From Candidatus Limnocylindrales bacterium (lineage in GTDB: Bacteria; Chloroflexota; Limnocylindria; Limnocylindrales; CSP1-4): a DNA stretch of 64,000 bases. Location: NCBI GenBank assembly GCA_035720425.1, contig DASTOB010000210.1:2638-66637 (forward strand), written 5' to 3'. This document shows, one piece after another, positions 11,262-64,000 of this stretch. A model generated the notes under the pieces. That model saw nothing but the letters and a program-made list of their open reading frames with translations, was not told where the DNA came from and did no database searches. Numbering within the stretch: position 1 is the stretch's first letter; each line of letters opens with the position of its first letter. The position numbers were made by a program, and so were the translations under genes.

Positions 11262-11390
11262 CCGGCCCGACGGTAGCAGACCGTTATCGGCCCCGACGTC
11301 CGGGAAATCCCGCAACGCCGCTCCGTTGGTCCAGGGGTGCTCACGCGACGCGCGGACGGCGAGGATGGCCCCGAAGACCGACGGAGGGAT

Positions 11391-12254
11391 GGGATGGATT
11401 TCGGGTTCGAGGCGAACGGCCTGGGCAAGCGATACCGGCGTCGCTGGGCACTCCGCGAGGTGGACGTCGCGGTGCCACAGGGCAGCATCACGGCGCTCGT
11501 CGGGCCGAACGGCGCCGGCAAGTCGACGATGATCAAGGCCGGAGTCGGCTTCGAACGCCCGACCACCGGCCGCGTCCTCGTCCACGGCGTCGATCCGTGG
11601 CGAGACCGCGCCCGGGCGATCGCCCAGGTCGGCTATGTGCCGCAGGCACCGTCGCTCTATCGCGAGCTGACCGTCGCCGACCACGTCCACCTGGCGGTCA
11701 CGCTTCGCCCGGGATTCGATCCCGTGCTCGCGCGAGCACGCCTCGATCAGCTCTCGATCCCGCTCGATTCGCGCGCCGACGAGCTGTCCGGCGGGCAGCA
11801 GGCGCAGGTGGGCCTGGCGCTCGCGCTGGGGGCGCGGGCGCCGGTCCTCCTCCTCGACGAGCCGCTCGCGTCACTCGATCCCCTCGCCCGGCGCGAGTTC
11901 CTCCACGTCCTCGTCGACGCCGTCCGCGCCGCCGGAGCGACGGCGCTCCTGTCGTCTCACGTCATCACCGACATCGAGCAGGCCTGCGACCGGCTGCTCG
12001 TCCTCGGCGGCGGCCGGAAGCTGCTCGACCTGTCGATCGCCGAGTCGCTTGCGGCGCACCGCATCGTCGACATGGCGTCGGCGGCGGACGACGTGGTCGG
12101 CACGTTCATGGATGCGACCGGCGAGTCCGTGTCCCTCGTCCGTTCCCGGGCCGCCGCACCGGCACACGGCCGACCGGCCACGCTCGAGGAGGTCGTGCTG
12201 GGCCATCTCGCGGCGGGACGGGATCGGCCGGCCGTCCGGCCGGTGGCCGCCTGA
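11391..12254 (+). CDS. ABC transporter ATP-binding protein
   Basis: Walker A GPNGAGKST, signature LSGGQQ, Walker B LLLDEP. Start chosen at ATG 11391 (MDFGFEANGL). Confidence 0.85.
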   Translation, partial: GMDFGFEANGLGKRYRRRWALREVDVAVPQGSITALVGPNGAGKSTMIKAGVGFERPTTGRVLVHGVDPWRDRARAIAQVGYVPQAPSLYRELTVADHVHLAVTLRPGFDPVLARARLDQLSIPLDSRADELSGGQQAQVGLALALGARAPVLLLDEPLASLDPLARREFLHVLVDAVRAAGATALLSSHVITDIEQACDRLLVLGGGRKLLDLSIAESLAAHRIVDMASAADDVVGTFMDATGESVSLVRSRAAAPAHGRPATLEEVVLGHLAAGRDRPAVRPVAA

Positions 12255-13234
12255 TGGTCGCCGCCGCGAGCACCGCGTCGCGCATCCTCGGCGCGAGCCG
12301 CATCACCGCCCGACTCCACCGCTTCGAGCTCATCGGCTTCGCCGGGCTGGCTGTGCTCGGCGTCCTCGCCACGATCGTCATCGCCGCCCAGCTCGACGCC
12401 GTCGGCTGGACCGCGGCCTGCGACGAGGCCATGCGCCGCGGCGCCGTGACTCCGCGCGACTGCGAGTTCAAGGTCAACGAGTTCTACGGCATCGTGTCGA
12501 GCCGCGGCTGGATCGTGTCCGGCCTCACCGGCTTCGTTCCGCTCGCGGCGGCGCTGCTCATCGGGGTCGCGGTCGTCGGCCGCGAGATCGAGCGCGGCAC
12601 GACGCGGCTTGCCTGGGCCCTCACGCCATCACGGCTGCGCTGGCTCGCCCAGCGCCTCGTGCCGGTGCTCCTGTTCGTGGCCGTCATCGGGCTCGTCCTC
12701 GGCGCCGCCGCGGATCGCTGGATCGCGGCGGCGGAACCCGGAATCGACCCCGCCAACGCGTTCGCGGGATTCGGGACCCGGGGTCCCGTCCTCGCCGCTC
12801 GTGCGCTGTTCGTCCTCGCGCTGGCGGTCGCGGTCGGAGCGGCACTCGGCCGTGCCCTGCCTGCGGTCATGGTCGGCGGCGCCATCGCGATCATGGGGAT
12901 CGTCGGGGGCTCCGAGGTCCACCAGCGGATCCTTCGCTCAGAGGCCGTGGTCATCGACGAGGCGGCCTTCGAGCCGGGCGACCTGTGGATCGACCAGCGA
13001 TTCCGGCTCGCCGACGGGACGCTCATCGGTTGGGACGACGTCGAACGCTACGACCCGCCGCCAGCCGAGTTCGACGACGAAACGGTCTGGCCGACCCTGC
13101 CGATGGTGACGATCGGGGTCCCCGGCTCGCGCTACGGCGAGGTGGCCGTGCGCGAGATCGCGGCGCTCGGCGGCGGCATGGTCGTCCTGCTCGGCCTGAC
13201 CGCGGCGATCGTCACGCGGCGGCGCCCCGGATAG
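12254..13234 (+). CDS. ABC-2 type transporter permease
   Basis: ATGA overlap with the ATPase stop. Polytopic hydrophobic protein. Confidence 0.65.
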   Translation: MVAAASTASRILGASRITARLHRFELIGFAGLAVLGVLATIVIAAQLDAVGWTAACDEAMRRGAVTPRDCEFKVNEFYGIVSSRGWIVSGLTGFVPLAAALLIGVAVVGREIERGTTRLAWALTPSRLRWLAQRLVPVLLFVAVIGLVLGAAADRWIAAAEPGIDPANAFAGFGTRGPVLAARALFVLALAVAVGAALGRALPAVMVGGAIAIMGIVGGSEVHQRILRSEAVVIDEAAFEPGDLWIDQRFRLADGTLIGWDDVERYDPPPAEFDDETVWPTLPMVTIGVPGSRYGEVAVREIAALGGGMVVLLGLTAAIVTRRRPG

Positions 13235-13275
13235 CCCCGATCCGGCACGACGCGCGATGATATGGCCACGCACTG

Positions 13276-14196
13276 ATGGCCAACCAACGCGTGACTGCAC
13301 TCGACACCGCGCCCTCGACCGCGCGCCGCTGGGCGGATGGCGCGGCACGCCGACTCGCTCGGCTGCCGCCGCTCCGCGCCCTCAAGTCGCGCCCGATCGT
13401 TGGGCTCGCGGCCGCGCTCGGCGCATGGGCGGTCGTCGTCGCCTTCTCGGAGCCGTGGGGTCGGCTGTGGGGCACCGGCCAGGACGCCCGCTGCTACTGG
13501 CAGGCCAGCCTCGCCAACCCGTACCTCCACTCCGAGTGGAACGACCCGATCGCGTACGTCTACTCGCCGGCCTTCCTCCAGCTCGTGAGCCCGCTCACCG
13601 CGCTTCCGTGGCAGCTGTTCATGGCGGCCTGGACGGCGATCCTCATCGGCTCGGCGGCGTTCCTGACCGGGCCGCGCCTGCTCGCCGCCGGCCTCCTCTT
13701 CCCGTTCACGGCCATGGAGATCGCGGGCGGCAACGTCTCCCTGCCGATCGCGGTCGCGATCGTGCTCGGGTTCCGCTGGCCGGCGACATGGGCGCTCATC
13801 CTGCTCACGAAGATCACGCCCGGCATCGCCCTCCTGTGGTTCGCCGTCCGGCGTGAGTGGCGCGCGCTCGCCATCGCGGCCGCCGCGACGGCGGCGATCG
13901 TCGCCCTGTCCGCGCTCGTGATGCCCGCGGCCTGGCGCGAGTGGATCGACGTGATCATCGGCAACACCGGCAAGGGCGGCACATGGGCGTCGGTGCCGAT
14001 TCCGCTGTGGATCCGCCTCCCCGCGGCGGTCGCCGTCGTCGTCTGGGGTGCCCGGACGGACCGCCCGTGGACCGTCCCGGTGAGCGCCATGCTCGCCCTC
14101 CCGGCACTGTGGTACGGCGGGATCTCGATGCTCCTCGCCGTCATCCTCCTCCGCGACGCCGATCGAGCGCGACGATGGCTGCCGCACCCGCGATGA
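13276..14196 (+). CDS. polytopic membrane protein, DUF2029/GT87-like (possible glycosyl/mannosyltransferase)
   Basis: Multiple TM segments and a conserved aromatic-rich loop. The family resemblance is from memory only. Confidence 0.45.
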   Translation: MANQRVTALDTAPSTARRWADGAARRLARLPPLRALKSRPIVGLAAALGAWAVVVAFSEPWGRLWGTGQDARCYWQASLANPYLHSEWNDPIAYVYSPAFLQLVSPLTALPWQLFMAAWTAILIGSAAFLTGPRLLAAGLLFPFTAMEIAGGNVSLPIAVAIVLGFRWPATWALILLTKITPGIALLWFAVRREWRALAIAAAATAAIVALSALVMPAAWREWIDVIIGNTGKGGTWASVPIPLWIRLPAAVAVVVWGARTDRPWTVPVSAMLALPALWYGGISMLLAVILLRDADRARRWLPHPR

Positions 14197-15376
14197 ACAC
14201 GATCGCCCCGACCACGAACGGCCCGGACACGCCGGCCACGCCGACGACGACCGCGGCGGACGCAGGTCCGACGATGCCCGCCGCGTAGAGCGGCAGGTAG
14301 ACGAGGTTGAGCGTGGCCGAACGCCGCTCCGCCGGAACCTCGGTCGCGAGGAGCCCGAAGACCATCGCCCCCACGGCCGACGCCGACGCGGCGAAGACGA
14401 GCGCCACGACGGCGAGCAGCGCGACGGACGGCGCGACCGGCATGAGCCCCAGCGCGACGCCGCCGACGACGAGCGACCCGACGAGCACGGGCCGGAACCC
14501 GATCCGATCGCCGAGCGCGCCGCCGAGCGGTGAGACGAGCGCCCCGACGAGGGCCGCCGTCCCGGCGACGAGGGCGATCCCGCTCGCGAGCCCGGGCCCG
14601 ACGCCGACCAGCCCCTCGACGAGGACCGGCACGTACGGCCGGCTCATCTGGTTCGACAGGAACGCGATCCCGTAGATCGCGAAGATGCGCCGGACCGCCG
14701 GGTCCGCGAGCACGCCGCGGACCGCGCCGTAGGCGAGCGTCAGGACCCGGCCGCTCGGGATCACCTCCGGCCGGACCTCGCGCGAGCCGAACGTCACGAG
14801 CAGCGCGGTCGCGACCGACAGGGCGGCCGACAGCCAGAAGACGGCCGACAGGGACCACCCGGCGCCGTCGATGAGGAGCCCGGCCAGGGCCGGACCGACG
14901 GCGAACCCGATCGGGCCCGAGGCGCCGAACAGGGCGATCGTCGTGCCGAGCCGGGCGCGCGGCGTCACGTCGCGGATGCCGGCCAGCATGACCCCGGTGT
15001 TCCCGAGCTGGAAGCCGATCAGGAGGATGCTCAGCGCGAGCTGCCACGGCTCGCGACTGAGCGCGACGCCGGCGAACACGACCGCCTCGACGATCGCGCT
15101 GCGGACGATGACCGCCTTTCGGCTGTACTTGTCCGCCCACACGCCCCAGAGCGGCACGAGCGGCGCGCCGACGACGAACAGGAGCGCCCCGAAGATCCCG
15201 ATGAAGGGCAGCCGATCCGCCTCCGGCACCCCCATCTCGCGCAGGTAGGACGGCAAGAGGGCGAAGATCTGGCTGACCCCGGCACCCTCGATGAGCGAGG
15301 TGATCCAGAAGACCGCGACGAGGGTCCGCCAGTCCTGTCGTGGATGGGCCGTGGCGGCCGGCGCGGTCGGGGTCAT
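14141..15376 (-). CDS. MFS transporter
   Basis: 12-TM profile over 411 aa. Confidence 0.8.
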   Translation of the reverse strand: MTPTAPAATAHPRQDWRTLVAVFWITSLIEGAGVSQIFALLPSYLREMGVPEADRLPFIGIFGALLFVVGAPLVPLWGVWADKYSRKAVIVRSAIVEAVVFAGVALSREPWQLALSILLIGFQLGNTGVMLAGIRDVTPRARLGTTIALFGASGPIGFAVGPALAGLLIDGAGWSLSAVFWLSAALSVATALLVTFGSREVRPEVIPSGRVLTLAYGAVRGVLADPAVRRIFAIYGIAFLSNQMSRPYVPVLVEGLVGVGPGLASGIALVAGTAALVGALVSPLGGALGDRIGFRPVLVGSLVVGGVALGLMPVAPSVALLAVVALVFAASASAVGAMVFGLLATEVPAERRSATLNLVYLPLYAAGIVGPASAAVVVGVAGVSGPFVVGAIVFIAGAAAIVALDRRRGGG

Positions 15377-15502
15377 GCGCCGGCGAGCCTAGCCGATGCG
15401 ACGCATCCGCGCGGCGGCGTTGCGACGTACCCGACACCACGACCCGACACCAAAGAGGAGTTCGGCCCCGATCGCGCTAGACTCGGCCGACGGAGGTAGG
15501 AC

Positions 15503-16372
15503 GTGGCCCGCTGGATCAACCGACTCATCGACGCCCAGGCTCGCTGGGCGAAGCCGTTCGGCGACTTCAACCACCGCTGGCTGTCGGCCCTCTTCCGCCC
15601 GATCCGCCCGGTCAAGGAGTTCCTCCACGGTCGCTGGCTCGGCACCCACCCGCTCCACGCCGCCGCGACCGACGTTCCGGTCGGCGCGCTGACCGTCGCC
15701 GTCGTGCTCGAGATCGCGGGTCAGCCCGGCGCCGCCGGCATCGCGACGGTCATCGGCCTGCTCGGCATGGTCGCCTCGACCGTGACCGGCCTCGCCGACT
15801 ACACGGACACCGACGGATCCGCCCGCACGAAGGCGACCGTCCACGCCACGATCATGGTCCTCGGCGTCGTCGTCCTCGTCGGGTCCGTGCTCGCCCGCGC
15901 CGCCGCTCAGGCCGGGTCGCCGCTGCCCGCCGCGCTCCTCGTCGCCGGCTTCCTCGTCGTCGTGGTCGGTGCCTACGTCGGCGGCGACGTCGTGTTCGCC
16001 CTCGGCAACATGGTCGACCGTCACGCCTGGCGCAGCCGGGGCACGAAGTGGGCGCCGCTCGACCTGGGCGGCTCGACGGAGATCCCGGAGGGCGTTTTGG
16101 TCAAGGCAAAGGCGGGCCCGAATGCCCTCGTCCTCGTCCGGACCGGCTCGACCATCCTCGCGCTGCACGAGCAGTGCGCCCACGCGGGCGGCCCGCTGGC
16201 GCAGGGACGGATCGTCGACGGCTGCGTCGAGTGCCCGTGGCACGCGTCGCGCTTCCGCCTCGCGGACGGAGCTGCCGTCGCGGGGCCGACGCTCTACGAC
16301 CAGCCGGCCTATGAAGTCCGCGCGGCGGAGAGCGGCGCGGGCTACGAGGTGCGCCGCACGTTCCGCCGGTAG
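15503..16372 (+). CDS. membrane-anchored Rieske [2Fe-2S] domain protein (DUF2231-like N-terminus)
   Basis: N-terminal TM segments. C-terminal Rieske box CAHAGGPL...CPWHASRF. Confidence 0.75.
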   Translation: MARWINRLIDAQARWAKPFGDFNHRWLSALFRPIRPVKEFLHGRWLGTHPLHAAATDVPVGALTVAVVLEIAGQPGAAGIATVIGLLGMVASTVTGLADYTDTDGSARTKATVHATIMVLGVVVLVGSVLARAAAQAGSPLPAALLVAGFLVVVVGAYVGGDVVFALGNMVDRHAWRSRGTKWAPLDLGGSTEIPEGVLVKAKAGPNALVLVRTGSTILALHEQCAHAGGPLAQGRIVDGCVECPWHASRFRLADGAAVAGPTLYDQPAYEVRAAESGAGYEVRRTFRR

Positions 16373-26876: not shown

Positions 26877-27494
26877 TCATGTGGCGAGGTCGCCTGGCAC
26901 GTCGACGTCGCGGAGCGTCGCAGCGTCGGGATCGAGCGGCCGCCAAGCTCCTTCCTCGAGGTCGCGGGTGCGCAGCACCGCGAGCAGGGCACGCAGGCTG
27001 CGCTCGCCGTCGGCGATCAGGCGGGCCGCCGCTTCGGTTGCGGAGCCCGTGCGCAGAACGATCGGGAGCGGCTCGCGCCGCCCACGCCGCTCGAGCGCGA
27101 CTGCCTCCGCGTCGGTGCCCGCCGCGAGTGACCGGAGCAGGGCCCGAATCACGTCCGGAACGAGCGAGGGCATGTCGCCCGCGGCGACGACGACGCACGA
27201 CTCCCGAGCCCGCTCGAGACCGGCCAGCAGCCCGACGAGCGGTCCGCCATCCGTCGTCGGGTCGCGCACGACTCGAACCGGAACGCCGACCTCCAGGGTC
27301 GCCGGGAGCGCTGGGCCGTCGCCGACGGGACCGATCACGACGAGTACCTCGGTCGTCGCCTGCGCGACGGCGAGGATCGCGTGATGGACGAGCGGACGGC
27401 TGTCGAACGGCTCGACCAGCTTGTCGCGTCCGAAGCGGCTCGATCGACCGCCGGCGAGGACGATCCCGGACGCGGCCGGCAGCTCGCCGATCAT
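26877..27494 (-). CDS. mobA: molybdenum cofactor guanylyltransferase MobA-like
   Basis: GIVLAGGRSSRFGRDK N-terminal NTP-transferase motif. The ATG overlaps the selB stop (ATGA). Confidence 0.7.
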   Translation of the reverse strand: MIGELPAASGIVLAGGRSSRFGRDKLVEPFDSRPLVHHAILAVAQATTEVLVVIGPVGDGPALPATLEVGVPVRVVRDPTTDGGPLVGLLAGLERARESCVVVAAGDMPSLVPDVIRALLRSLAAGTDAEAVALERRGRREPLPIVLRTGSATEAAARLIADGERSLRALLAVLRTRDLEEGAWRPLDPDAATLRDVDVPGDLAT

Positions 27495-29434
27495 CGCCCG
27501 GACGGACCGCCGACCGGCCTGCGCGGGCCGGGCACGTGGCCCGCAGGCGTCCTCGCCAGGACGCCGCGCCGCCCGAACTCCTCGAGCAGGGCCATGACGT
27601 ACTTGCGGCTCGATCCGATCGCGTCGCGATAGGCCGCCGGCATGAGCGGCGCCTGCTCGGCCATGGCCACGGCGACCGACTCGAGCCGGGCGTAGGTCGG
27701 CGTCGCGAACGCGAGATCGTCGTCGACGCGAACGATCTCGCCGGCCGCCTCGAGCATCCGAACCGCGTCCGACGAGCATCCCGCCGCACGCACCGCCTCG
27801 GCCAGGGACGGCGGCGTCGGCGTGTCGAGGCCCGCCACGAGGCGGTCGAGCGCCGCCCGTGCATGCGGCGACGGCCCGACCGACGCACCGGGACGGAGCA
27901 GCCGTTCCCCGCTGCGGGCCAGGCGACCCGCCCGCACGAGCGCGTCGATGAACGCGGTCGCGGCTGCGTCGGCTCCCTCACGGTCGACCGTGGCCGCACG
28001 GCGGAGCGCGGTCGCCACGGCATCCCGGACGATCGGCGCGGGGGCGCCGGGCATGACCGTGTCATGGCCCGCGCTGGCGGCCTCGACCGCAGCCGACGCT
28101 TCGGTCACGAGGCGCGCCGCGACATCCGGGGCGAGGGCGACCGGACCGGCCACGAGGAGACCGGGCGTCGTCGGTCCCCCGTTCCCGCCCGCCTCGGCCA
28201 CGCGCGACACCGGCAGCGCACCGTGCAGCTCGACGAGGGGGGCGGCCATGGCCTCGAGGCGGGCTGCGGCGGTCGCGAAGGCCCCGAGGCGAGCCGCGGT
28301 CGCGCGGCGCCGCGAGACCCCGCGCGCCGGTAGGGGGTCGAGGACGACACCGCCGGCGAGTGCCGCCCCGGCCGCCGCGTCGCGCAGGACGAACCGGTCG
28401 CCGATCGCCGCCGCCATCGGCCGGTCGAGGCGGAGCACGGCGGTTGCCGCGCCGTCGTCGAGCGGCCCGGCCTCGCGTCCGGATCGGACGACGCGGGCGG
28501 CCGCGTGATCTGTGCCGAGATGGAGCATCACGATCGCGCCGTCGGCTGGGAGCGACGCCGGCGGCGGCGCGGCGGCGCGGAGCGGGACCGGCGGGCGCAA
28601 CACGGCGAGCAGGCGCGACGTCTCGACCACGTCCGGTCCGCCGGCCAGGACGTGCCCGCGCGCCAGTCGGTCGACGCTCGGCCCGGCGATGGCGAGCGCC
28701 GTGCGTCCGGGCCCCGCGCGCTCGACCGTGCCGCCATGGACCTGGATTTCCCGGATCCGGACCGTCTCGCGTTCGGCATAACCCGGCACGAGCCGAAGCG
28801 TCGATCCACGGGTGATCGGTTCGCCCCGGAGTGTCCCCGTCACGACCGTGCCGCGCCCGCGCACGACGAACGCGCGGTCGATCGCGAGGCGCGACGGCCG
28901 CGCCTCGAGTCGTTTCGCTGCGTGAACCGCGTCGCGCAGCTCCGCGAGCGCCATGCGCAGCGCGTCGAGCCCGTCGCCTCGCGTCGCCGAAACCGGCAGC
29001 ACCGGTGCGCCGGCGACGCTCGTGCGCGCGAGCAGCGACCGGGTCGCGGCCACGACCTCCTCGAGCCGCTCCGGCGGGACGAGATCCGCCTTCGTGACCA
29101 CCGCGATGCCATGGCGGATCGCGAGCGCGTCGAGCAGCTCGAGGTGCTCGAACGTCTGCGCGCGCGGCCCGTCGTCGGCGGCGACGACGAGGAGGGCCGC
29201 GTCGATCTCGCCGGCCCCGACGAGCATGTTGCCGACGAGCCGATCGTGGCCGGGCACGTCGACGAAGTCGATCTCGGACCCGTCGTCGAGGCGGAGGTGG
29301 GCGTAGCCCACGTCGATCGTCATGCCCCGCTGCCGCTCCTCAGGAAGCCGATCGGCGTCGATCCCGGTCAGCGCGCGGAGCAGCGCCGTCTTGCCGTGGT
29401 CGATGTGGCCGGCGGTCCCGACGACGACCGTCAC
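27491..29434 (-). CDS. selB: selenocysteine-specific elongation factor SelB
   Basis: GTP-binding GHIDHGKT and DxPGH, followed by long winged-helix C-terminal domains. GTG start overlaps the selA stop. Confidence 0.9.
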
Positions 29435-30810
29435 GACCGATCCCCGAGCGCGGCGCGGACGGCCCCGGTGAGGTCCGCGTCACGCGCCGGGTCCACCGTC
29501 CGCAGGTCGAGCACGACGCGGCCGTCCTCGATCCGGCCGACGACGGCCGGTTCGCCGCCGCGCAACCGGCCGAGCAGCCGATCGGCGGACCGGGCCCGGA
29601 GCGCAAGGCCGACCGACGGGAGCCTCTCGCCCGGGAGGCTGCCGCCGCCGACGGTCGAATGCAGGTCGACGATCGCGACCGCCTCACCGATCGTTCGGGC
29701 GAGCGAAGCGGCGCGCTCGCGGAGCGCGTCGACCGACGTGGCGAGCATGCGCCAGACCGGCACCTCTGCCGTGGCCCGGCCCGCCGCGTACAGGGCGAGC
29801 GTCGCCGCGACGGCCACAAGCGTCGCCTTGTCCGGGCGCATCGCGCGCGCGAGCGGGTCCCGCCGCAGCCGCGCCACGAGGTCCGCGCCGCCGACGACGA
29901 GCCCGGCCTGGGGCCCGCCGACGAGCTTGTCGCCGCTGAACGTGACGAGATCGGCGCCGGCGGCGAGTCGCTCGGACGGCATCGGCTCGTGGGCGAGCCC
30001 GACCGTGGCGGTGTCGAGCAGGGCGCCGCTGCCGAGGTCGTCGACCACGAGCGCCCCGTGAGCGTGCGCGAGCTCGGCGACCGCGACGGGATCGGGATCC
30101 TCGGTGAAGCCCTCCTGGCGGAAGTTCGATCGGTGCACGCGCAGGACGAGGCGCGCCCGCCCGTCGGCCAGCGGAGGCTCGAAGTCGGCCGCCCGGGTCC
30201 GGTTCGTCGTGCCCACCTCGATGAGCCGCGCGCCCGCGCGGCGGACGATCTCCGGGATGCGCACGCCGCCGCCGATCTCGACGAGCTCGCCGCGCGAGAC
30301 GGCCACGCCGCGGCCGCGCCCGGCCAGACCGACGGCGAGGGCGACCGCCGCCGCGTTGTTGTTCGTGACGAGCGCGTCCTCCGCACCGGTCAGCTCGACG
30401 AGCAGCGCCTCCGCCGCGCGGAAGCGGTGGCCGCGCCGCCCGGTGTCGCGGTCCAGCTCGAGCAGGAGCGGATCGGCCGCCGCAGTTCGGGCCGCCTCGA
30501 TCGCCGCGCGCGGCCACGGCGCGCGCCCAAGGTTCGTGTGGATGACCACGCCCGTCGCATTGATGACCGGCGTCAGCCCCGTGGACCAGGCGCGTTCCGT
30601 CGCTTCGAGCCGGCGGACGACCTCGGCCGCGAGCGCCGCGACATCGCGCGCCGCCGCCTGCCCGTCGCCCAGTCGCGCCCGTTCCTCGGCGACGACCGCA
30701 CGCGCCGCCGCGGCAAGGGCGGCATGCTCACGCGGCGCCTGGAGGGCGGCCCGAACGGCGACGAGGACCGCCTCGACGGCGGGCGGTCGGACCGGACGCT
30801 GGATGGCCAT
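29431..30810 (-). CDS. selA: L-seryl-tRNA(Sec) selenium transferase SelA
   Basis: PLP-fold with [14 protein letters not shown] (Lys in SGDK). Start taken at ATG 30810 (MAIQRP...); the ORF extends further upstream. Confidence 0.9.
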
Positions 30811-30822
30811 CGGGCGAGGCGA

Positions 30823-30922
30823 CCTCCATGGCGGGAGCGCATGGGAGTCGAACCCACCGCGCAACGCCGAGCGCCGCGCCACTGGTTTTGAAGACCAGGG
30901 GACCCACCGGGACCCGACCGCT
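30823..30922 (-). tRNA. selC: tRNA-Sec (selC), anticodon UCA
   Basis: Reverse complement reads GGCGGGAGCGGTCGGGTCCCGGTGGGTCCCCTGGTCTTCAAAACCAGTGG...CGCTCCCGCCA. Extended acceptor stem, 6-bp anticodon stem, loop CUUCAAA with anticodon UCA, and a long variable arm. CCA is not encoded. Confidence 0.85.
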
Positions 30923-30977
30923 CCCGCCCGATGGTAGCGCGGCGGCCGTCCGATCCCCGTCCGCCTATGATCGACCG

Positions 30978-32027
30978 GTGATCCCACGCTCTGCGGAGCC
31001 GCCGCTCCGCCTGACCGAACTGACCGACTGCGGCGGCTGCGCGGCGAAGCTCGGGGCGGACCTGCTGGCCGACGCGCTGGCGGGCCTCGGTGCGGCCGAT
31101 GCACCCGCCGCGCTCATCGCCGGCCTCACGCCCCCGGACGACGCCGCGGTCTACCGCGTGTCGGACGACCTCGCGATCATCGGGACGCTCGACTTCTTCC
31201 CGCCGCTCGTCGACGACCCGCGGACGTTCGGCGAGATCGCGGCGGCCAACGCCGTGTCGGACGTGTTCGCGATGGGTGGACGGGTCCTGTTCGCCCTGTC
31301 GATCGCGGCGTTTCCGGAGGAGCTGCCACGCGACGTGCTCGCCGCCGTGTTCGACGGGGCGGCGTCGGTCGTGCGGGCGGCGGGCGGCACGCTCGCCGGC
31401 GGCCACACGATCCGCGACCCGGAGCCGAAGTACGGGTTGGCCGTGATCGGCGCGGCGGCCCCATCGCGGCTGCTGCGCAAGGGCGGCGCCAGGCCAGGTG
31501 ACGTGCTGCTCCTGACGAAGCGACTGGGCACGGGGCTCCTCGTCAGCGGCCGGCGCCAGGGCAGAACGGCGGATACGGATTTCGCGGCCGCCATCGACCA
31601 GATGCGCGAGCTCAACCGGGCCGCCTCGGAGGTGCTCGTCGATCACGGCGTCGCGGCGGCCACGGACGTCACCGGCTTCGGGCTGCTCGGTCACGGCCTC
31701 GAGATGGCGCGGGCCGGCGGCGTGCGGCTCGCGTTCGAGGCGGCCGCGCTGCCGGCACTCGGGGGTGCGCTCGCGCTCGCCGCGGCCGGGGTCGAGACCG
31801 GCGGCGCCGCCCACAATCGGCGCTTCGTGGCGCCGTCGCTCGACCGCGTCCCAGGCGTGTCCGACGAACTCGTCGCGCTCGCCCACGACCCGCAGACCTC
31901 CGGCGGCCTCCTCGCGGCGGTGCCGCCCGGATCGCTCGCCGCCGTCCAGGCGGACCTCGACGCGCGCGGCGTCGACCACTGGCGGGTTGGGTCGGTCCAG
32001 CCCGGCGAGGGCGTGTCGCTCTCGTAG
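30978..32027 (+). CDS. selD: selenide, water dikinase SelD (Cys-type)
   Basis: N-terminal LTELTDCGGCAAK (the position of the SelD Sec/Cys) and AIR-synthase-like domains. GTG start. Confidence 0.85.
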   Translation: MIPRSAEPPLRLTELTDCGGCAAKLGADLLADALAGLGAADAPAALIAGLTPPDDAAVYRVSDDLAIIGTLDFFPPLVDDPRTFGEIAAANAVSDVFAMGGRVLFALSIAAFPEELPRDVLAAVFDGAASVVRAAGGTLAGGHTIRDPEPKYGLAVIGAAAPSRLLRKGGARPGDVLLLTKRLGTGLLVSGRRQGRTADTDFAAAIDQMRELNRAASEVLVDHGVAAATDVTGFGLLGHGLEMARAGGVRLAFEAAALPALGGALALAAAGVETGGAAHNRRFVAPSLDRVPGVSDELVALAHDPQTSGGLLAAVPPGSLAAVQADLDARGVDHWRVGSVQPGEGVSLS

Positions 32028-32103
32028 CGGGCGACTGGCGGTGTACCCGGACCGCGGCGCGGACTACACTCGACGGCGTCGTCAACCCGCACGGAGGCAC
32101 CGA

Positions 32104-34017
32104 GTGCCGAAGCGCTACGTTCGACTGACCCAGCCCCTCGTCCGCGACACGAGGGGGAGCGACTTCCGCCCAACGACGTGGGACGAGGCGCTCGACCGGG
32201 TGGTCGCCGGGTTCACGGCCGCGAAGGCGGCCAAGGGCCCGACGACGTTCGGCGTGTTCAGCTGCAGCAAGGCGACCAACGAGGTCAACTTCGCGGCGCA
32301 GAAGTTTAGCCGGACGGTCCTGGGCAGCAACAACATCGACAGCTGCAACCGCACCTGACACGCGCCGTCTGTCGCCGGTCTGGCGACCGTCTTCGGCGCT
32401 GGTGGCGGAACCAGCTCATATCGTGAGGTCGAGGACACCGATCTGATCGTCCTCTGGGGCAGCAACGCCCGAGAGACGCATCCGATCTTCTTCCACCACG
32501 TCCTGCGCGGCGTCCACAACGGCGCCCGCCTCTACGCGGTCGACCCGCGACGGACGGATTCGGCCGAGTGGGCGGACGGCTGGCTCGGCCTCGACGTCGG
32601 CTCCGACATCGCCCTCGCGAACGCAGTCGGCCGCGAGATCATCGCCGCCGGCCTCCACCATCGCGCGTTCATCGACCGAGCGAGCACCGGGTTCGACGCC
32701 TACGCGGCCGGCGTCGAGCCGTACACGCTCGACTACGCCGAGCGCGAGACCGGTGTCCCGGCCGACCTCATCCGCGAGCTCGCCCACGCCTACGCAACGG
32801 CCGACCGGGCGATGATCTGCTGGACCCTCGGCATCACCGAGCACCACAACGCGGTCGACAACGTTCTTGCGCTCATCAACCTCGCCCTGCTGACCGGGCA
32901 CGTCGGTCGCTACGGGAGTGGCCTCAATCCCCTCCGCGGTCAGAACAACGTCCAGGGCGGCGGCGACATGGGCGCCCTCCCGGACCGCCTGCCCGGGTTC
33001 CAGCACGTCGAGAACGAGGCACTCCGGGCCCGCTTCGACGAGGCGTGGGGCGTTCCCGTGCCGCCGAAGCGTGGCTGGCACCTGTCCGGCATGTTCGACG
33101 CGATGGAGCGCGGCGACCTGACCGCGGTCTACGTGATCGGCGAGAACCCCGTCCAGTCCGAGGCGGACCAGACGCGGGCGATCCACCTCCTCACCGGCCT
33201 CGAGTTCCTCGTCGTGCAGGACCTGTTCCTCACGAAGACGGCCGAATTGGCCGACGTCGTCCTCCCCGCCGCCGCGGCATGGGCGGAGAGCGAGGGTACC
33301 GTCACGAACTCGGAGCGGCGCGTCCAGCGCGTGCGCAAGGCGATCGATCCGCCCGGCGATGCGCGCGACGACCTTGCGATCATCGTCGAGCTGGCACGGC
33401 GGATGGGCCACGACTGGGGCACCCAGACGGCGGAGGACGTCTGGAACGAGGTCCGCCGCCTGTCGCCGGTTCACGCCGGGATGAGCTACCGGAGGCTCGA
33501 GGAGCTCGGCGGCATCCAGTGGCCGTGCTACGACGAGGACCACCCGGGCGAGCTGTTCCTCCACAGCCGCCTGTGGGAGGACCCGGTTCCGGGCAACCGC
33601 GTCCCGTTCGTGGCGGTCGAGCACGATCCGCCGGTCGACAAGCTCGACGACGACTTCCCGATCCGGCTCACCACCGGCCGACGGCTCGACTCGTACAACA
33701 CCGGCGTCCAGACGGCCGGCTACTCGTCTCCGCTGCGTCGCGGCGAGTCGCTCGACATCAGTCCGGAGGACGCGGAGCGCCTCGGACTCGCCGAGGGCGA
33801 GGTCGTCCGCGTCACGTCGCGGCGCGGGTCGGTCGAGGTGCCGATCCGGATCGACCCGTCGCTCCGCCCCGGCCTCACCTTCATGACCCTCCACTTCCAG
33901 GACGACGTGGCCACGAACCTGCTCACGATCGACGCGACGGACCCCAAGTCCGGCACGGCGGAGTTCAAGGCGACCGCGATCCGGATCGAGAAGGTCGCGG
34001 CGGCGCTGCCCGCCTAA
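32104..34017 (+). CDS. fdhA: formate dehydrogenase catalytic (molybdopterin) subunit, selenocysteine-containing, lacking the N-terminal Fe-S domain
   Basis: Two ORFs (31765..32358 and 32812..34017) lie in the same frame, separated only by TGA 32356-32358. The context SCNRT-U-HAPSVAGL matches the FdhF Sec motif (CARV-U-HGPSVAGL). C-terminal molybdopterin-dinucleotide-binding domain. GTG start with an upstream GGAGG. Confidence 0.85.
32359..32398 (+). promoter_or_regulatory. bacterial SECIS element immediately 3' of the Sec UGA
   Basis: Lower stem CGCCG/CGGCG, internal loop, upper stem GUCGCC/GGCGAC, apical loop GGUCU. This closely parallels the E. coli fdhF SECIS (UGACACGG...GGUUGCAGGUCUGCACC). 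Confidence 0.65.
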
Positions 34018-40462: not shown

Positions 40463-41332
40463 TCAGCCGCCCAGCAGTTCGCGCAGGTCGATCCGGCCGT
40501 CGTGGCTGTAGACGTTGAAGCCGTCGCCGCGCAGGAAGCCGACCAGCGTCACGCCGAGCCGCTCGGCGGCGGCGATCGCGAGGTCCGTCGGGGCCGATAC
40601 GGCGCACACGATCGGGATGCCGGCGACCGCCGCCTTCTGGACGATCTCGAAGCTGACCCTGCCGCTGACCATGAGGATCCGATCGTGGAGCGGCAGCGCG
40701 CCGGCGAGCACCTGCGAGCCGACGAGCTTGTCGAGGGCGTTGTGCCGGCCGACGTCCTCGCGGATGGCGACGAGTCGGCCGTCCGGAGCGAACAGGCCGG
40801 CGGCGTGGACGCCGCCGCTGGCCTCGAAGTCGACCTGGGCGGCCCGGAGGGCGTCAGGGAGGGCAAGGATCACTTGGCGTGCCACGACGGGCTCGCCGTC
40901 GGGGAGCGGATCGCAGCGCACGGCGACCTCGTCGAGCGATGCCTTGCCGCAGATCCCGCAGCTTGCCGTGGCGACGAAGTGGCGCTCCGCGACGCGGCTC
41001 GCGTCGAACGGGCGCGACAGGCGGACGATCACCTCGTCGTCCGGCTGGCTCGTCCGGGCCGGGTCGCCGAACGTCACCCGGACGACCTCGTCGCCCGCGA
41101 TGAGGCCTTCGGTGCGCAGGAAGCCGACGGCAAGCTCTGCCTCGTGGCCGGGCGTCCGCATCGTCACCGCGACCGACACCGGTTCCTGGCCGGGCCCCGC
41201 GGCTCGGATCTCCATCGGGTCCTCGCCGGCGACCACGTCGGCGCGGACCTCGAGCTCCGATCCGCGGACCGCGACGACGCGCGCCGACGCGAGGTGGCGG
41301 GTCGGCGGCCGGAGCGCCTCGTTCGTGGCCAT
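40463..41332 (-). CDS. fdhD: formate dehydrogenase accessory sulfurtransferase FdhD
   Basis: Conserved SCGICGK cysteine motif. 289 aa. Confidence 0.85.
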   Translation of the reverse strand: MATNEALRPPTRHLASARVVAVRGSELEVRADVVAGEDPMEIRAAGPGQEPVSVAVTMRTPGHEAELAVGFLRTEGLIAGDEVVRVTFGDPARTSQPDDEVIVRLSRPFDASRVAERHFVATASCGICGKASLDEVAVRCDPLPDGEPVVARQVILALPDALRAAQVDFEASGGVHAAGLFAPDGRLVAIREDVGRHNALDKLVGSQVLAGALPLHDRILMVSGRVSFEIVQKAAVAGIPIVCAVSAPTDLAIAAAERLGVTLVGFLRGDGFNVYSHDGRIDLRELLGG

Positions 41333-52882: not shown

Positions 52883-56616
<3,734 letters not shown>

Positions 56617-56620
<4 letters not shown>

Positions 56621-57996
56621 GCACCCCCACGCCGCCGTCCCGCCCGGTCCGGCTCGACGTCGTCGTCCTCCTGCCCAGGTCGAGCACGGGGACGTCCGTC
56701 CTGGCGCGAACCGCGGACGGGCTCCGGCTGCCGACCGTCACGGCCGAGGCGTCGGACGAGGAGCCGAGCCTGTCGGCGCTGGCCGACGCGGTCGCCGGGC
56801 TGCTCGGGAGCGAGCCGGTTCCCCTCCGCATCGTCCCGCTTGATGCTGTCGGGGCGGGCCGCAGCACGACGTACCTGCTCGAGCTCGCGCCGATCGAGGG
56901 ACTCGTGCCTCCGGCCGGGTTCGACTGGATCGAGGCTGGTACCGTCGAACCGGCCATCGATCCGGAGCCGGCCGGGGCCACGGTCAGGCGCTGGGTGGAC
57001 GAGCGCCGAAACGGGCCCAGCCCGCGACGTCCGGCGTGGTCGCATCCCGGCTGGCTCGAGCGCGCCGGCGCCTGGATGACGAACCGGATGGCACGAGCCG
57101 GACTCACGGCGTCCGGGACGCCCCGCCTGCACTACCTGTGGGGCCTGTCGGCCGTCGTCCGGGCCGACACGGATCGCGGCGCGGCGTTCCTCAAGGCCTG
57201 CGCCACCGTCTTTCGGACCGAACCGCGGCTCACGGCGACCCTGGCCGGCGCGTCGCCGGACCTCCTGCCGGAGGTCATCGCGACGAGCGACGAGGACTGC
57301 TGGCTGCTCATGGGCGACCTCGGCGGCACGCTCCTCGGCAACGAGCCGGTCGATCGGTGGGCCGACGGGCTCGATGCCCTCGCGACGATCCAGCGGCGCT
57401 GGGTCGGCCGTGACGGCGAGCTGGCGGCCGCCGGTTTCGAGGATCGCGGCCTCGAGGCCCTCGCCCGCCGCCTGCCGGCCCTGATCGACGATCCGGCCGT
57501 CGGGAGTCTCGACGCGGACGCCCGGCGGAGCCTGGCGACAGCCCTGCCGCGCCTGATCGACGCGTGTCATGCACTCGCCGAGCTCGGCCCTCCGGCGACC
57601 GTCGTGCACGGCGACTTCCACCCGTGGAACGTCGCCCGACGGGACGGGCAGATGGTCGTGTTCGACTGGTCCGACGCGGCGATCGGGCATCCGTTCCTCG
57701 ACCTCGTGACGTGGGTCGGTCGCACGCCGGACGTCGCGGCCCGGCGGCGGATGGTCGACCGCTACGTCGCCCACTGGTCGGACTTCGTGCCGGCGAGCCG
57801 GGCGGACGAGGCGGTGCGGCTCGCCCTGCCCCTCGGGGCGATCCGCCAGGTCGAGAGCTATCGACGCATCCTCGACTCGCTCGACCCGGACGACCACTGG
57901 GACCTCGCCCTCGCCGGCGCGAGCTACGCGCGGCGCACGCTGGCGCTCCTCCGGGACGGGCTCGAGGCGCCGCTCGGGCGCGACGGCGGCGCGTGA
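56617..57996 (+). CDS. phosphotransferase (APH / choline-kinase-like) family protein
   Basis: The GTG overlaps the metH stop (GTGA). Brenner motif HGDFHPWNV plus DWSDA. Confidence 0.7.
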
Positions 57997-58051
57997 TCCG
58001 TCACCCAATCCACCGGCGGCACGACGTCGTATCCATGACGGATGACAGGCG

Positions 58052-58831
58052 TTGAATCCGGGTCGTAGATTCCTGCTCGTGACGCACCGTCGACGCGGAC
58101 GCCTGGGGCGCCTCGCGATCGCTCTCCTCCTGGCGGCCCAGGCGATCGTCGTCGCGGGACCCGTTCCGGCCGGCGCGGCGACGGCCTTTCGACTCGACGT
58201 GTCGACGCCGACCGACTTCGTGGCCCAGACGAACTTCGTCCAGTGCGTCGGGGCGAGCATGCAGATGATGCTCAACATGATCGAGGCGGAGGACGACCGC
58301 ACGGCGGCCGAACAGCTCCGGCTCCAGGACATCGCGCGCTACTACAGCGGCTCGCGGCCGGACGGCCGGCAGCGCCAGGGAGCAAGCGTCCGTGGCTGGT
58401 CGGCCGGGCTCAACCTCGAGGGAGCCGGACCGTATCGGCTGGTCGGCACGACGACGATCGAGGAGGCGATGCGGGTCGCGGCCACGGCGATCAGCCAGAC
58501 CGGCAAGCCGGTGGGCCTGCTCGTCTGGCGCGGACGGCACGCCTGGGTCATGAGCGGGTTCACGGCGACCGCGGATCCCTCGACGACGGCGGACTTCACC
58601 GTCACCGAGGCGATCGTCCTCGACCCGCTCTACCCGCACGGCTCGAAGACATGGGGACCCAGCCCCAAACCGCGCGAGGCGCTATCGATCAGCGAACTCG
58701 GGCGCCAGTTCGTGCAGCGCCGCACGGGCCAGAGCGCTCGGAGCTGGCTTTCCTCATTCGCCGGTCAGTACGTGATGGTCGTCCCGATGCGAGCGATGCT
58801 CGATCGGCACGTGGGGCTGCTCCCGGCCTGA
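58052..58831 (+). CDS. secreted papain-fold Peptidase_C39_2-like protein (paralog of 48228..49370)
   Basis: Signal peptide LAIALLLAAQAIVVAGPVPAGAA. QCVGASMQMMLNMI and GKPVGLLVWRGRHAWVMSGF align to the same motifs in the paralog. Confidence 0.6.
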   Translation: MNPGRRFLLVTHRRRGRLGRLAIALLLAAQAIVVAGPVPAGAATAFRLDVSTPTDFVAQTNFVQCVGASMQMMLNMIEAEDDRTAAEQLRLQDIARYYSGSRPDGRQRQGASVRGWSAGLNLEGAGPYRLVGTTTIEEAMRVAATAISQTGKPVGLLVWRGRHAWVMSGFTATADPSTTADFTVTEAIVLDPLYPHGSKTWGPSPKPREALSISELGRQFVQRRTGQSARSWLSSFAGQYVMVVPMRAMLDRHVGLLPA

Positions 58832-62332: not shown

Positions 62333-62605
62333 TCAGCCGCCGGCCATCGCCGGCAGGAGGAGGACCGTGTCGGCCGGACCGACCGGCGTCGCGAGCTCGT
62401 CGAGGTGGCGCACGTCCGTGCCGTTGACGAACACGTTGACGAACCGGTTCAGCGACCCGTCGGCGCCGAGGACGGACGCCTCGATGCCCGGGTGCGCGGC
62501 GACGAGCGCCGTGAGCACCTCGCCAACCGTCGCGCCGGCCACGTCGACCGTCTTGGCGCCGTTCGTCGCCGGCCGGAGGGTCGGCGGAATGCGCACCGTG
62601 CTCAT
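62333..62605 (-). CDS. MoaD/ThiS-family sulfur-carrier-like protein (CysO-like)
   Basis: 90 aa ending in a -GG C-terminus (LLLPAMAGG*). The ATG overlaps the thrC stop. Confidence 0.6.
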   Translation of the reverse strand: MSTVRIPPTLRPATNGAKTVDVAGATVGEVLTALVAAHPGIEASVLGADGSLNRFVNVFVNGTDVRHLDELATPVGPADTVLLLPAMAGG

Positions 62606-63903
62606 GCGCCGAGCCACTCGAGGAACGCGTCGAGGTCTGGCGGGATCGGATCGGCCAGGCCGGGCCCGCCCCGCTCCGCCCGCCGCCCGGCCAGCCCGAA
62701 CGACGACGCGTCCGGCGTCTTGAGCCCGTTCCCGGTCAGGAGCACGACGACCTCGTCGTCCGGTCCGATGATCCCGGCCGCTCGCGCCTGGGCGGCCGCC
62801 GCAAGGGTCACGCCGCCGGCCGTCTCGGGGTGGATGCCCTCGGTCGCCGCGACCCGCCGGATCGCCTCGGCCGCTGCGGCGTCGGTCACCGCCTCGATCG
62901 ACCCCCGGCTCGCCCGTGCCTGTTCGAGCGCGTAGCGCCCGTCGGCCGGCGAGCCGATGGCGAGCGAGCGGACGATCGTGTCCGGGACCCGGACCGGGGT
63001 GATCTCGTCCGTGCCGGCGGCATAGGCCGTCGCGACCGGCGCGCAGCCGGCCGCCTGGCCGCCGACGAAGCGGACGGGTTTCTCCTCGACGAGCCCGAGC
63101 CGGACGAGCTCGGCGATTCCCTTGGCGAGCTTCGTGTACAGGGCACCCGAGGCGATCGGCGCGACGATCACGTCCGGCAGGCGCCAGCCGAGGTCCTCGG
63201 CGACCTCGAACGCGAGCGTCTTCGATCCCTCCGCGTAGAACGGGCGGAGGTTGACGTTGACGAAGCCCCAGCCCGTCTCGTCGGCGATCTCGAGGCACAG
63301 CCGGTTGACGTCGTCGTACGTGCCGGTGACCGGGATGACCGACGCGCCGTAGGCGAGTGCGTGATCGATCTTGGCCGGCTCGAGATCGGCCGGGATGACG
63401 ACGTAGGCCGGAAGGCCGATGGCGGCGGCAGCGGCCGCCGTGGCACCCGCGAGATTGCCGGTCGAGGCACAGGCCAGCGCCGGCAGGTTCCACTCCGCCG
63501 CCCGCGCCGCGGCGATCGCGACGGCGCGGTCCTTGAATGACAACGTCGGGTTGCGCGTGTCGTCCTTGAGCCACAGCCGCTCGATGCCGATCTCCGGGCC
63601 CAGGCGGGTGGCGGCGACGAGCGGCGTGGAACCGACGGCGAGGCCGCGCGCGGGCTGCTCGTCGGCCGGCAGGAGCTCGAGATAGCGCCAGATCCCCGGC
63701 CGCCGGGCCTCGATCCGCTCGCGGGTCAGGACGCCGTCGAGCGCGTCGTAGTCGTAGTCGACCTCGAGCGGGCCGAAACAGGCCGCGCACACGTAGGACG
63801 GCCCGAGCGGCTCCGGCCGCGCACAGTTGCGACAGCGCAGGCCCCGGATTCGCGCGCCCGGCGCGGCGTCGGATCCGGGTGGGGTCAGCAGCTCGGTCGT
63901 CAT
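62602..63903 (-). CDS. thrC: threonine synthase-family PLP enzyme with N-terminal zinc ribbon
   Basis: CRNC...CAAC zinc ribbon. PLP-Lys motif TLSFKDR. 433 aa. Confidence 0.8.
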   Translation of the reverse strand: MTTELLTPPGSDAAPGARIRGLRCRNCARPEPLGPSYVCAACFGPLEVDYDYDALDGVLTRERIEARRPGIWRYLELLPADEQPARGLAVGSTPLVAATRLGPEIGIERLWLKDDTRNPTLSFKDRAVAIAAARAAEWNLPALACASTGNLAGATAAAAAAIGLPAYVVIPADLEPAKIDHALAYGASVIPVTGTYDDVNRLCLEIADETGWGFVNVNLRPFYAEGSKTLAFEVAEDLGWRLPDVIVAPIASGALYTKLAKGIAELVRLGLVEEKPVRFVGGQAAGCAPVATAYAAGTDEITPVRVPDTIVRSLAIGSPADGRYALEQARASRGSIEAVTDAAAAEAIRRVAATEGIHPETAGGVTLAAAAQARAAGIIGPDDEVVVLLTGNGLKTPDASSFGLAGRRAERGGPGLADPIPPDLDAFLEWLGA

Positions 63904-64000
63904 CGGAACGGCTCCTCTGTCCTGCCGCGCCTCGCGGGACGCGGTGGTGGGCGTGGGAGCGTCGGGGGACCGAGAAACCGGAAGACCCTTCCTGTGAGGG

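Follow-up and report, generated by a model that had tools for sequence, protein, structure and literature searches.

At one end of the window, as the whole 64,000-nucleotide stretch of analysed DNA is called here, two overlapping genes were identified that probably form a metM-metO module (probability about 85%), i.e., a gene pair for the synthesis of homocysteine, and so of methionine, by a protein-thiocarboxylate route. The system as such is already known as the MetM/MetO route, and the window pair is very probably its Chloroflexota (Limnocylindria-type) case; no new kind of system was revealed. The sequence-only reading that preceded this analysis had proposed that the sulfur for a ThrC-like PLP enzyme may come from a protein thiocarboxylate, in a route to sulfur amino acids rather than to threonine. 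This proposal gained support from the MetM/MetO precedent, a riboswitch in relatives, the conserved Gly-Gly terminus of the carrier, the separate clade of the enzyme and a second thrC in the actinomycete Nonomuraea. The following features were assigned:

52883 to 56620, plus strand: metH, B12-dependent methionine synthase, with matches to all five MetH Pfam domains; context, outside the operon
62333 to 62605, minus strand: metO-like gene for a 90-aa sulfur-carrier protein of the ThiS/MoaD/CysO fold, from the open reading frame, Pfam ThiS and the SAMP1 model
62602 to 62605, minus strand: ATGA overlap of the metM-like TGA with the metO-like ATG, suggesting translational coupling from the sequence
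62602 to 63903, minus strand: metM-like gene for a ThrC-family PLP enzyme of 433 aa, from the open reading frame, PALP, TIGR00260 and the clade signature
63532 to 63534, minus strand: codon of lysine K124 in NPTLSFKDR, predicted to form the Schiff base with PLP and aligned with K61 of Thermus thermophilus ThrC
63778 to 63834, minus strand: four-cysteine N-terminal ribbon CRNC...CAAC, codons 24 to 42 (C24-x2-C27...C39-x2-C42)
63904 to 64000, minus strand: 3' part of the 5' leader, with part of a hairpin (loop and 3' arm) predicted to follow a SAM-I aptamer, from alignment to the related loci L001, L089 and L090 and from folding
63912 to 63917, minus strand: GAGGAG, ribosome-binding site read from the sequence, 8 nt upstream of the metM-like ATG

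Precedent in Actinomycetota

In Streptomyces albulus, the ThrC homologue MetM forms homocysteine from O-phosphohomoserine and MetO-thiocarboxylate, as the work of Hasebe et al. (2024, Appl Environ Microbiol 90:e01247-24) is summarized in PMC12172450 and the GapMind 2026 preprint. In the same summaries, MoeZ and Mec are named as pathway partners, a SAM riboswitch is placed upstream, and MetM is described as 'often misannotated' as threonine synthase. As far as these summaries go, the window pair resembles the S. albulus system in that a ThrC-homologous PLP enzyme adjoins a ThiS/MoaD-type carrier. An upstream SAM riboswitch like that of S. albulus is predicted for the window pair from the leaders of relatives. 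Further likenesses, predicted for the window pair, are that the genes for the E1 (MoeZ) and Mec lie elsewhere and that the output enters methionine synthesis. The window pair differs in belonging to the Chloroflexota, and to the Limnocylindria type as judged by its nearest relatives.

The likeness to the S. albulus proteins was judged through a Nonomuraea proxy and through identities quoted second-hand: the window enzyme shared 53% identity with the ThrC-like protein that is under riboswitch control in Nonomuraea, the window carrier shared 43% with the ThiS-like partner of that protein, and a Microcystis homologue is 51.6% identical to MetM (PMC12172450). The Nonomuraea chromosome harbors the module of riboswitch, ThrC-like gene and ThiS-like gene, plus a separate canonical thrC.

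The ThrC-like enzyme and canonical threonine synthases

The metM-like gene product matched Pfam PALP (E = 2.2e-68) and passed the thrC model TIGR00260 with 245.6 bits (cutoff 167.1), while PRK08197, with 279.5 bits, stayed under its cutoff of 303. No recorded protein was identical to it in an exact-sequence look-up. The N-terminal zinc ribbon and the TLSFKDR motif that the sequence-only reading had attributed to the gene were both located. The four ribbon cysteines (C24, C27, C39 and C42) were invariant across 15 aligned homologues and present in the Nonomuraea homologue too, and probably form a metal-binding zinc ribbon. K124 was likewise invariant among the aligned homologues.

The phylogenetic comparison with bona fide ThrC suggested earlier was carried out, and signature residues were compared with a canonical set of five sequences, i.e., four crystallized ThrCs and the Nonomuraea canonical ThrC. 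Both the neighbor-joining tree and the signature residues placed the window protein in a clade of its own, apart from canonical ThrC. In T. thermophilus numbering, the canonical set shares G58, T88, S155, N157, R160 and V-G-N-A-G-N at 186-191, whereas the window protein and its whole clade carry G58L, T88L, S155N, N157R, R160Y and IASGAL in place of VGNAGN. The resulting clade signature (L88/N155/R157/Y160/IASGA) is shared by the Nonomuraea ThrC-like protein. T88, S155 and R160 are residues that we take to bind the substrate phosphate in ThrC; since they are changed, substrate binding in the window enzyme is presumably not simply ThrC-like, a point that counts against the metM-metO reading. 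In practice, the residue signature STGNL, VNxNLRPxY and PIASG tells MetM-like enzymes from ThrC.

Canonical ThrCs (PDB 2ZSJ, 6CGQ, 1UIM and 2D1F) have in common with the window enzyme the fold, the PLP lysine, the STGN loop, the C-terminal TGNGLK and, presumably, the substrate O-phosphohomoserine. What sets the window protein apart is an additional Cys4 ribbon region of 66 aa, outside the alignment with the crystallized ThrCs (which begins only at residue ~67), and a conserved C-terminal tail. In addition, window-type genes are SAM-controlled and linked to a carrier gene.

Could the pair nevertheless be an ordinary threonine synthase gene next to one for an unrelated or accessory ubiquitin-fold protein? 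The TIGR00260 score, the solved structures nearest to the enzyme (all threonine synthases) and the finding that no other thrC was seen within the 64-kb window would fit. However, the identity to the crystallized ThrCs was just 35-39%, T88, S155, R160 and the VGNAGN loop have given way to other residues, control in relatives is by SAM and not by threonine, the tight coupling to a GG-terminated carrier is conserved, and Nonomuraea has a separate canonical ThrC beside its equivalent module. TIGR00260 does not discriminate between MetM-like proteins and ThrC, because the Nonomuraea MetM-like protein passes it too (270 bits). An ordinary threonine synthase is thus highly improbable.

The carrier protein

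The overlap between the stop codon of the thrC-like gene and the start of a 90-aa reading frame, claimed earlier, was present as ATGA at 62602 to 62605. The small protein, which had been described as ending in AMAGG and as a sulfur carrier by type, closes with LLPAMAGG directly before its stop codon, and this description was borne out by a match to Pfam ThiS (E = 7.1e-13) and by its best solved relative, Mycobacterium tuberculosis CysO (3DWG_C, 1.4e-17). The ThiS/MoaD protein 4N6E_B of A. orientalis was matched with 6.9e-16. As the last residues are exactly Gly-Gly, no C-terminal trimming would be needed.

With 65.6 bits, the carrier scored just above the cutoff of 60 of the NCBIfam SAMP1 equivalog. 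SAMPs and TtuB act as sulfur carriers as well as modifiers. On these grounds the small protein might mainly be a SAMP/ubiquitin-like modifier, with the neighboring enzyme as its target or unrelated to it. This is extremely unlikely: the carrier is nearer to CysO than to the SAMP1 structures (8.6e-9), its Nonomuraea orthologue fell below the SAMP1 cutoff (55.9 bits), and the coupling to a PLP enzyme together with the SAM riboswitch favors a metabolic role.

The relationship to CysO, which is proven to supply a PLP enzyme with sulfur as a thiocarboxylate, would also agree with a CysM/CysO-like route, in which O-phosphoserine and the carrier thiocarboxylate give cysteine, and SAM riboswitches control cysteine genes too in some bacteria. 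Such a route is very unlikely here, since within the PALP fold the enzyme groups with ThrC and not with CysK/CysM, and the neighbor is metH and not a set of cys genes. Cysteine synthase A (PRK10717), the only cysteine-synthase model among the best 25 matches listed, reached 42.5 bits, far short of its cutoff of 387. The characterized homologue MetM, moreover, uses O-phosphohomoserine according to the summaries cited above.

Conservation of the pair

In one search of genome contigs, related loci were retrieved exclusively from Chloroflexota metagenome-assembled genomes, at 67-76% identity. Among 80 related genome loci, 79 could be assessed, and the carrier reading frame lay directly downstream of the enzyme gene in 73 of them. 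The 4-nt overlap of the window pair recurred in most related loci, and LPAMAGG was kept by all of their carriers with a complete C-terminus. The absence of a conserved GG terminus from orthologues, which the sequence-only reading had named as evidence that would speak against it, was therefore not what these loci displayed. The arrangement of ThrC-like enzyme and carrier is not due to chance. Six related loci with riboswitch and enzyme had no adjoining carrier gene; these count against the metM-metO reading.

As a separate observation, the carriers of some relatives bear a conserved Cys-x-Cys tail beyond the GG.

A predicted SAM-I riboswitch in the leader

Within the window, just 97 nt of sequence precede the start codon of the metM-like gene, too little for the aptamer to be visible. 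When the terminal 300 nt were scanned with Rfam, the matches were accordingly no more than noise, the predicted aptamer lying beyond the edge. Positions 64000 to 58170 of the window aligned with positions 9904 to 15695 of the related locus L001 (89%), and there RF00162 was found at 9778-9885 with 73.6 bits. In L089 and L090, the two close relatives with sequence extending beyond the window end (88-91% identical to the window), a SAM-I aptamer starts 18 nt past that point. RF00162 was also found upstream of the homologous gene in locus L002, in 11 of 11 further loci having enough upstream sequence, and upstream of the Nonomuraea ThrC-like gene; both core SAM riboswitch motifs were present in 77 of 82 related loci. 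From these relatives, we infer a SAM-I riboswitch in the leader of the window gene, just past the window edge. A terminator scan of the L001 leader revealed no canonical intrinsic terminator.

The riboswitch also bears on a catabolic explanation. A cyanobacterial MetM-like homologue acts as a threonine deaminase and did not raise methionine (PMC12172450), a finding that counts against the metM-metO reading. By analogy with this Microcystis aeruginosa MetM-like 'ThrC', which has a metO-like neighbor, deaminase activity and induction by threonine (PMC12172450), the main role of the window enzyme could be threonine deamination or degradation, with the carrier unrelated or regulatory. However, the Microcystis gene has no SAM riboswitch (PMC12172450), whereas the window clade has one almost universally. 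In addition, it is not evident why a catabolic enzyme would require translational coupling to a GG carrier. The deaminase activity, for its part, was recorded at high threonine, and canonical ThrCs show it as a side activity too. Deamination as the main role is thus highly unlikely.

Pathway context

The metH gene lies ~6 kb from the pair and is syntenic in L001. An APH-family gene after metH was considered as a type II homoserine kinase and rejected, as it had no specific NCBIfam match. The sequence-only reading had suggested looking for a MoeB/ThiF-like E1 and a JAMM/Mec protease adjacent to the pair or elsewhere; an adjacent location was not borne out, with no E1 (ThiF/MoeZ) and no JAMM/Mec among the ~50 reading frames of the 64-kb window, and none in the flanks of the pair in five related loci (L001, L002, L086, L087 and L088), which counts against the metM-metO reading. 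Close to the pair in L088, another PALP gene was inspected as a candidate thrC and rejected, being CBS/cysteine-synthase-like.

Proposed mechanism

For the metM-metO module of the window, we infer the substrate, the chemistry and the E1 and hydrolase partners as follows. An E1 of the MoeZ/MoeB type, with its gene elsewhere in the genome, would adenylate the MetO-like carrier at its C-terminal Gly-Gly, and the carrier would then be converted to the thiocarboxylate MetO-COSH. The ThrC-like enzyme would bind O-phospho-L-homoserine on K124 and eliminate the phosphate, and the MetO thiocarboxylate would then attack C-gamma, in place of the water addition that gives threonine. Resolution of the adduct, possibly via a Mec/JAMM hydrolase, would yield free homocysteine and regenerated MetO, and MetH would methylate homocysteine to methionine. 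When SAM is plentiful, the SAM-I riboswitch in the leader would turn expression off.

Variants of this scheme may be envisaged for the Limnocylindria-type MetM-like enzymes, namely another substrate or mode of sulfur delivery (e.g., direct sulfide or persulfide), docking of the carrier by the zinc ribbon, or a carrier that is also a SAMP-like modifier. Room for these three alternatives is left by the T88L/S155N/R160Y pocket, the invariant Cys4 ribbon, and the relatives with Cys-x-Cys-tailed or no adjoining carriers. Taken together, the variants are unlikely.

Comparison with other systems and significance

In the CysM-CysO-Mec-MoeZR system of M. tuberculosis, a GG carrier is thiocarboxylated by MoeZR and hands its sulfur on to a PLP enzyme whose substrate is an O-phospho amino acid, and the same logic is predicted for the window pair. 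CysM, however, is of the CysK/CysM type and carries out a beta-replacement on O-phosphoserine, whereas the window enzyme is of the ThrC type and is expected to carry out a gamma-replacement on O-phosphohomoserine; in addition, the window pair has no adjacent mec gene.

In Wolinella succinogenes, the sulfur of homocysteine made by the HcyS-HcyF-HcyD-MetY pathway (Krishnamoorthy and Begley 2011) reportedly also comes from a protein thiocarboxylate, as predicted for the window pair. This pathway differs in that MetY is a fold type I enzyme acting on O-acetylhomoserine, that no ThrC homologue is involved, and that the HcyS carrier, unlike the window carrier, needs proteolytic maturation.

Methanogen cysteate synthase is likewise a ThrC homologue recruited for a sulfur nucleophile and an O-phospho amino acid, but it uses sulfite and O-phosphoserine and no carrier protein. 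Its model, TIGR03844, gave 61.9 bits with the window enzyme, far under the cutoff of 324.9.

Current NCBI family models would name the pair "threonine synthase" and "ubiquitin-like small modifier protein 1" (SAMP1). Limnocylindria-type Chloroflexota are abundant in soil and freshwater, and metabolic reconstructions made for them with these names would overlook the step that forms homocysteine and assign them a threonine synthase in error; recognizing the module of riboswitch, metM and metO corrects such misreconstruction. The range of the module covers at least the Actinomycetota and the Chloroflexota.

Overlapping genes for a ThrC-like enzyme and a GG-terminated carrier

The sequence-only reading had placed a threonine-synthase-family PLP enzyme, coupled to a MoaD/ThiS-like carrier, at the end of the window (G+C content of 73%). 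Both ORFs were recovered there, and each feature of that observation was confirmed:

62602..63903, minus strand: ThrC-like (metM-like) gene, 433 aa; PALP, TIGR00260
62333..62605, minus strand: carrier (metO-like) gene, 90 aa; Pfam ThiS, NCBIfam SAMP1

The enzyme matched Pfam PALP (2.2e-68) and NCBIfam TIGR00260 thrC (245.6 bits; cutoff 167.1), and scored 279.5 against PRK08197, under the cutoff of 303. The proposed N-terminal zinc ribbon was seen as four cysteines, C24, C27, C39 and C42 (Cys-x2-Cys...Cys-x2-Cys), for which zinc binding is predicted, and the TLSFKDR motif was found within NPTLSFKDR. Since the crystallised threonine synthases 2ZSJ, 6CGQ, 1UIM and 2D1F (35–39% identity) aligned only from about residue 67, the Cys4 ribbon is an added N-terminal module. 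The sequence GAGGAG is located 8 nt 5' of the enzyme ATG.

As claimed, the enzyme stop and the carrier start share an ATGA (62602-62605). The carrier ends in LLPAMAGG followed by the stop codon and matched Pfam ThiS (7.1e-13). A role as SAMP-like protein modifier is a rival reading: the NCBIfam SAMP1 model was passed, if barely (65.6 bits; cutoff 60), but M. tuberculosis CysO (3DWG_C, 1.4e-17) is a closer relative, being the best solved one together with an Amycolatopsis ThiS/MoaD protein (4N6E_B). In NCBIfam release 20.0, the window pair passed the cutoffs of TIGR00260 (thrC) and NF041918 (SAMP1); neither this pair nor the Nonomuraea gerenzanensis locus L083 matched any model for MetM or MetO. 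Automatic annotation with these models would name the pair "threonine synthase" and "ubiquitin-like small modifier protein 1".

The pair is conserved in Chloroflexota

A genome scan returned 80 loci with 67–76% identity, all from Chloroflexota MAGs (Limnocylindria/Limnocylindrales where named), and the window's organism probably belongs to the same class. Of the 79 loci that could be assessed, 73 had the carrier ORF directly behind the enzyme gene, in most cases with the identical 4-nt overlap. Loss of the GG terminus in orthologs would have spoken against the sequence-only reading; LPAMAGG was kept in every carrier with a complete C-terminus. About 50 carriers stop right behind GG, like that of the window, and 22 extend 1–45 residues further, 11 of these with a conserved ...C[SA]C[PT][GEKR]R... 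tail. The cysteine-tailed carriers (loci L003, L005, L006, L007, L010, L011, L013, L015, L020, L033 and L052) run 20–45 residues past GG, as ...GTHGGxCSCPGRVAxR or ...CACPGRASxG. Thiocarboxylation would first require removal of such a tail, unless the tail serves a function of its own. A DUF4395 gene follows tailed carriers in L002 and L087.

In six loci (L026, L043, L051, L055, L060 and L079), the MetM-like gene was present with no MetO-like ORF across the fetched locus; here, a carrier gene may lie at another site, or the enzyme may draw sulfur from a different donor. Neighbouring genes differed from contig to contig (L001, L002, L086, L087 and L088), and the flanks of these five contained no ThiF/MoeZ or JAMM gene. 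MAG MFD02199.bin.2.130 carries two copies of riboswitch, MetM-like and MetO-like genes on separate contigs (L030 and L057).

A SAM-I riboswitch precedes the pair in relatives

An exact-match look-up of the enzyme gave no hit. The JGI contig L001 encodes a 96%-identical enzyme and shares its gene order with the window (PALP, ThiS, SDR, proline dehydrogenase, SpoIID/CWB2, a hypothetical gene and MetH), with 89% DNA identity starting at the last base of the window. Rfam detected a SAM-I riboswitch (RF00162; 73.6 bits) in L001, 116 nt upstream of the enzyme start codon. On the 1.39-Mb contig L002, a second one (73.9 bits) precedes the gene of a homologue with 75% identity. The same held for 11 of 11 further loci whose upstream sequence was long enough; five of the six loci without a carrier are among them. 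With a two-motif pattern drawn from 13 Rfam hits (92% identical), both motifs were found upstream in 77 of 82 loci and one motif in three more; the remaining two had no upstream sequence. The conserved unit is riboswitch, enzyme and carrier.

When metagenome contigs were scanned with the terminal 33 nt, three were found that are 88–91% identical to the window. In the two reaching further, the aptamer begins 18 nt beyond the window end; therefore, 63904-64000 would be the 3' part of a riboswitch leader. By homology, the window's own genome would carry the SAM-I riboswitch. Folding placed an 11-bp hairpin after the aptamer, its loop and 3' arm lying within 63904-64000. In L001, a promoter-like TTGACC-17-TAGGAT lies ahead of the aptamer, and the terminator scan scored no canonical terminator in the leader.

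Module enzymes are separate from canonical threonine synthases

A corresponding locus was found by tblastn of a plasmid collection on NZ_LT559118.1 (PLSDB title "Nonomuraea gerenzanensis plasmid I"; 11.85 Mb, just 10 annotated features). From its size, this record is evidently the chromosome filed as a plasmid; groEL, thrC and a metM/metO module are all encoded on it. The locus comprises a SAM-I riboswitch (68.7 bits), a ThrC-like gene also encoding a Cys4 ribbon (53% identity to the window enzyme) and a 91-aa carrier ending in AVAGG (43% identity), with groEL downstream. A canonical ThrC (65% identity to M. tuberculosis ThrC) is encoded 9 Mb away; therefore, the module enzyme is a thrC paralogue in at least that genome.

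Five canonical ThrCs (the four with crystal structures and the one from Nonomuraea) were aligned with the module enzymes of the window and of Nonomuraea and with six homologues from Limnocylindria. Canonical ThrCs share G58, T88, S155, N157, R160 and V-G-N-A-G-N at 186-191 (T. thermophilus numbering). The module enzymes instead have L/H58, L88, N155 (T in one homologue), R157, Y160 and I-A-S-G-(A/S)-x. In ThrC, T88, S155 and R160 presumably hold the substrate or product phosphate and thereby steer water addition. Neighbour-joining separated module enzymes, including the window protein, from canonical ThrCs. PRK08197 represents a third, ribbon-bearing ThrC-like subfamily (e.g., on a Chlorohelix plasmid), distinct from both. 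That the window gene encodes an ordinary ThrC is unlikely in view of the SAM control read in relatives, coupling to a carrier and the altered active site.

Probable assignment to the MetM/MetO system and proposed mechanism

As described in papers citing Hasebe et al. (2024, Appl Environ Microbiol 90:e01247-24), the MetM/MetO route comprises the carrier MetO, the hydrolase Mec, the sulfur ligase MoeZ and MetM, a MetO-thiocarboxylate-dependent homocysteine synthase. According to PMC12172450, Streptomyces albulus metM has a SAM riboswitch upstream, and MetM prevents methionine auxotrophy. The window pair likewise combines a ThrC-like enzyme with a carrier, and a SAM riboswitch precedes the pair in relatives. 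These data support its being a Chloroflexota representative of this already known system, currently misnamed. The case for membership is built on architecture, regulation and the actinomycete proxy, which also support the earlier proposal of a protein-thiocarboxylate sulfur donor rather than threonine synthesis. The practical gain is improved annotation and a residue signature.

Two other activities were considered. In M. tuberculosis, MoeZR makes CysO-COSH, CysM uses it on O-phosphoserine and Mec hydrolyses the adduct (PMC3227635); an analogous cysteine synthesis is unlikely here, since the enzyme falls outside the CysK/CysM type. Threonine deaminase is a rival, as this activity is reported for a Microcystis homologue in PMC12172450; however, the same paper describes the Microcystis gene as lacking a riboswitch, and ThrCs are known to deaminate as a side reaction.

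Gene anatomy, conservation, regulation in relatives and clade placement come from the data above; for the chemistry and partner proteins of a MetM/MetO-type pair, we infer the following. A distal MoeZ-type E1 would adenylate and thiocarboxylate the terminal glycine of the carrier; as GG is the very end of the window carrier, its C-terminus would need no processing before activation. The ThrC-like enzyme would form the O-phosphohomoserine aldimine, eliminate phosphate and accept the carrier thiocarboxylate at C-gamma. Homocysteine would be freed and the carrier recycled, directly or via a Mec-type hydrolase, and MetH would make methionine. SAM bound to the leader would repress the operon. The window encodes MetH:

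52883..56620: metH; all five MetH domains matched

None of the roughly 50 window ORFs with GC3 support was identified as an E1, Mec, thrB or second thrC gene. Directly after the metH stop lies an APH-family phosphotransferase gene (56620-57996, plus strand; PF01636, 5.7e-16). L001 has no DNA matching 56617-58169, so this stretch of about 1.5 kb is present only in the window. Type II homoserine kinases belong to the APH family; the gene matched no specific model, and that it supplies O-phosphohomoserine is only a guess.

A selenocysteine region elsewhere in the window

A complete selenocysteine toolkit was observed at 27491-34017, with FdhD encoded further along:

27491..29434, minus strand: selB
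29431..~30800, minus strand: selA
30833..30925, minus strand: tRNA-Sec (Rfam, 70.4 bits)
30828..32027, plus strand: selD-like gene
40463..41332: FdhD

The molybdopterin oxidoreductase directly after the selD-like gene contains an in-frame TGA (32356-32358; motif SCNRT-U-HAPSVAGL) and is probably a selenocysteine formate dehydrogenase.
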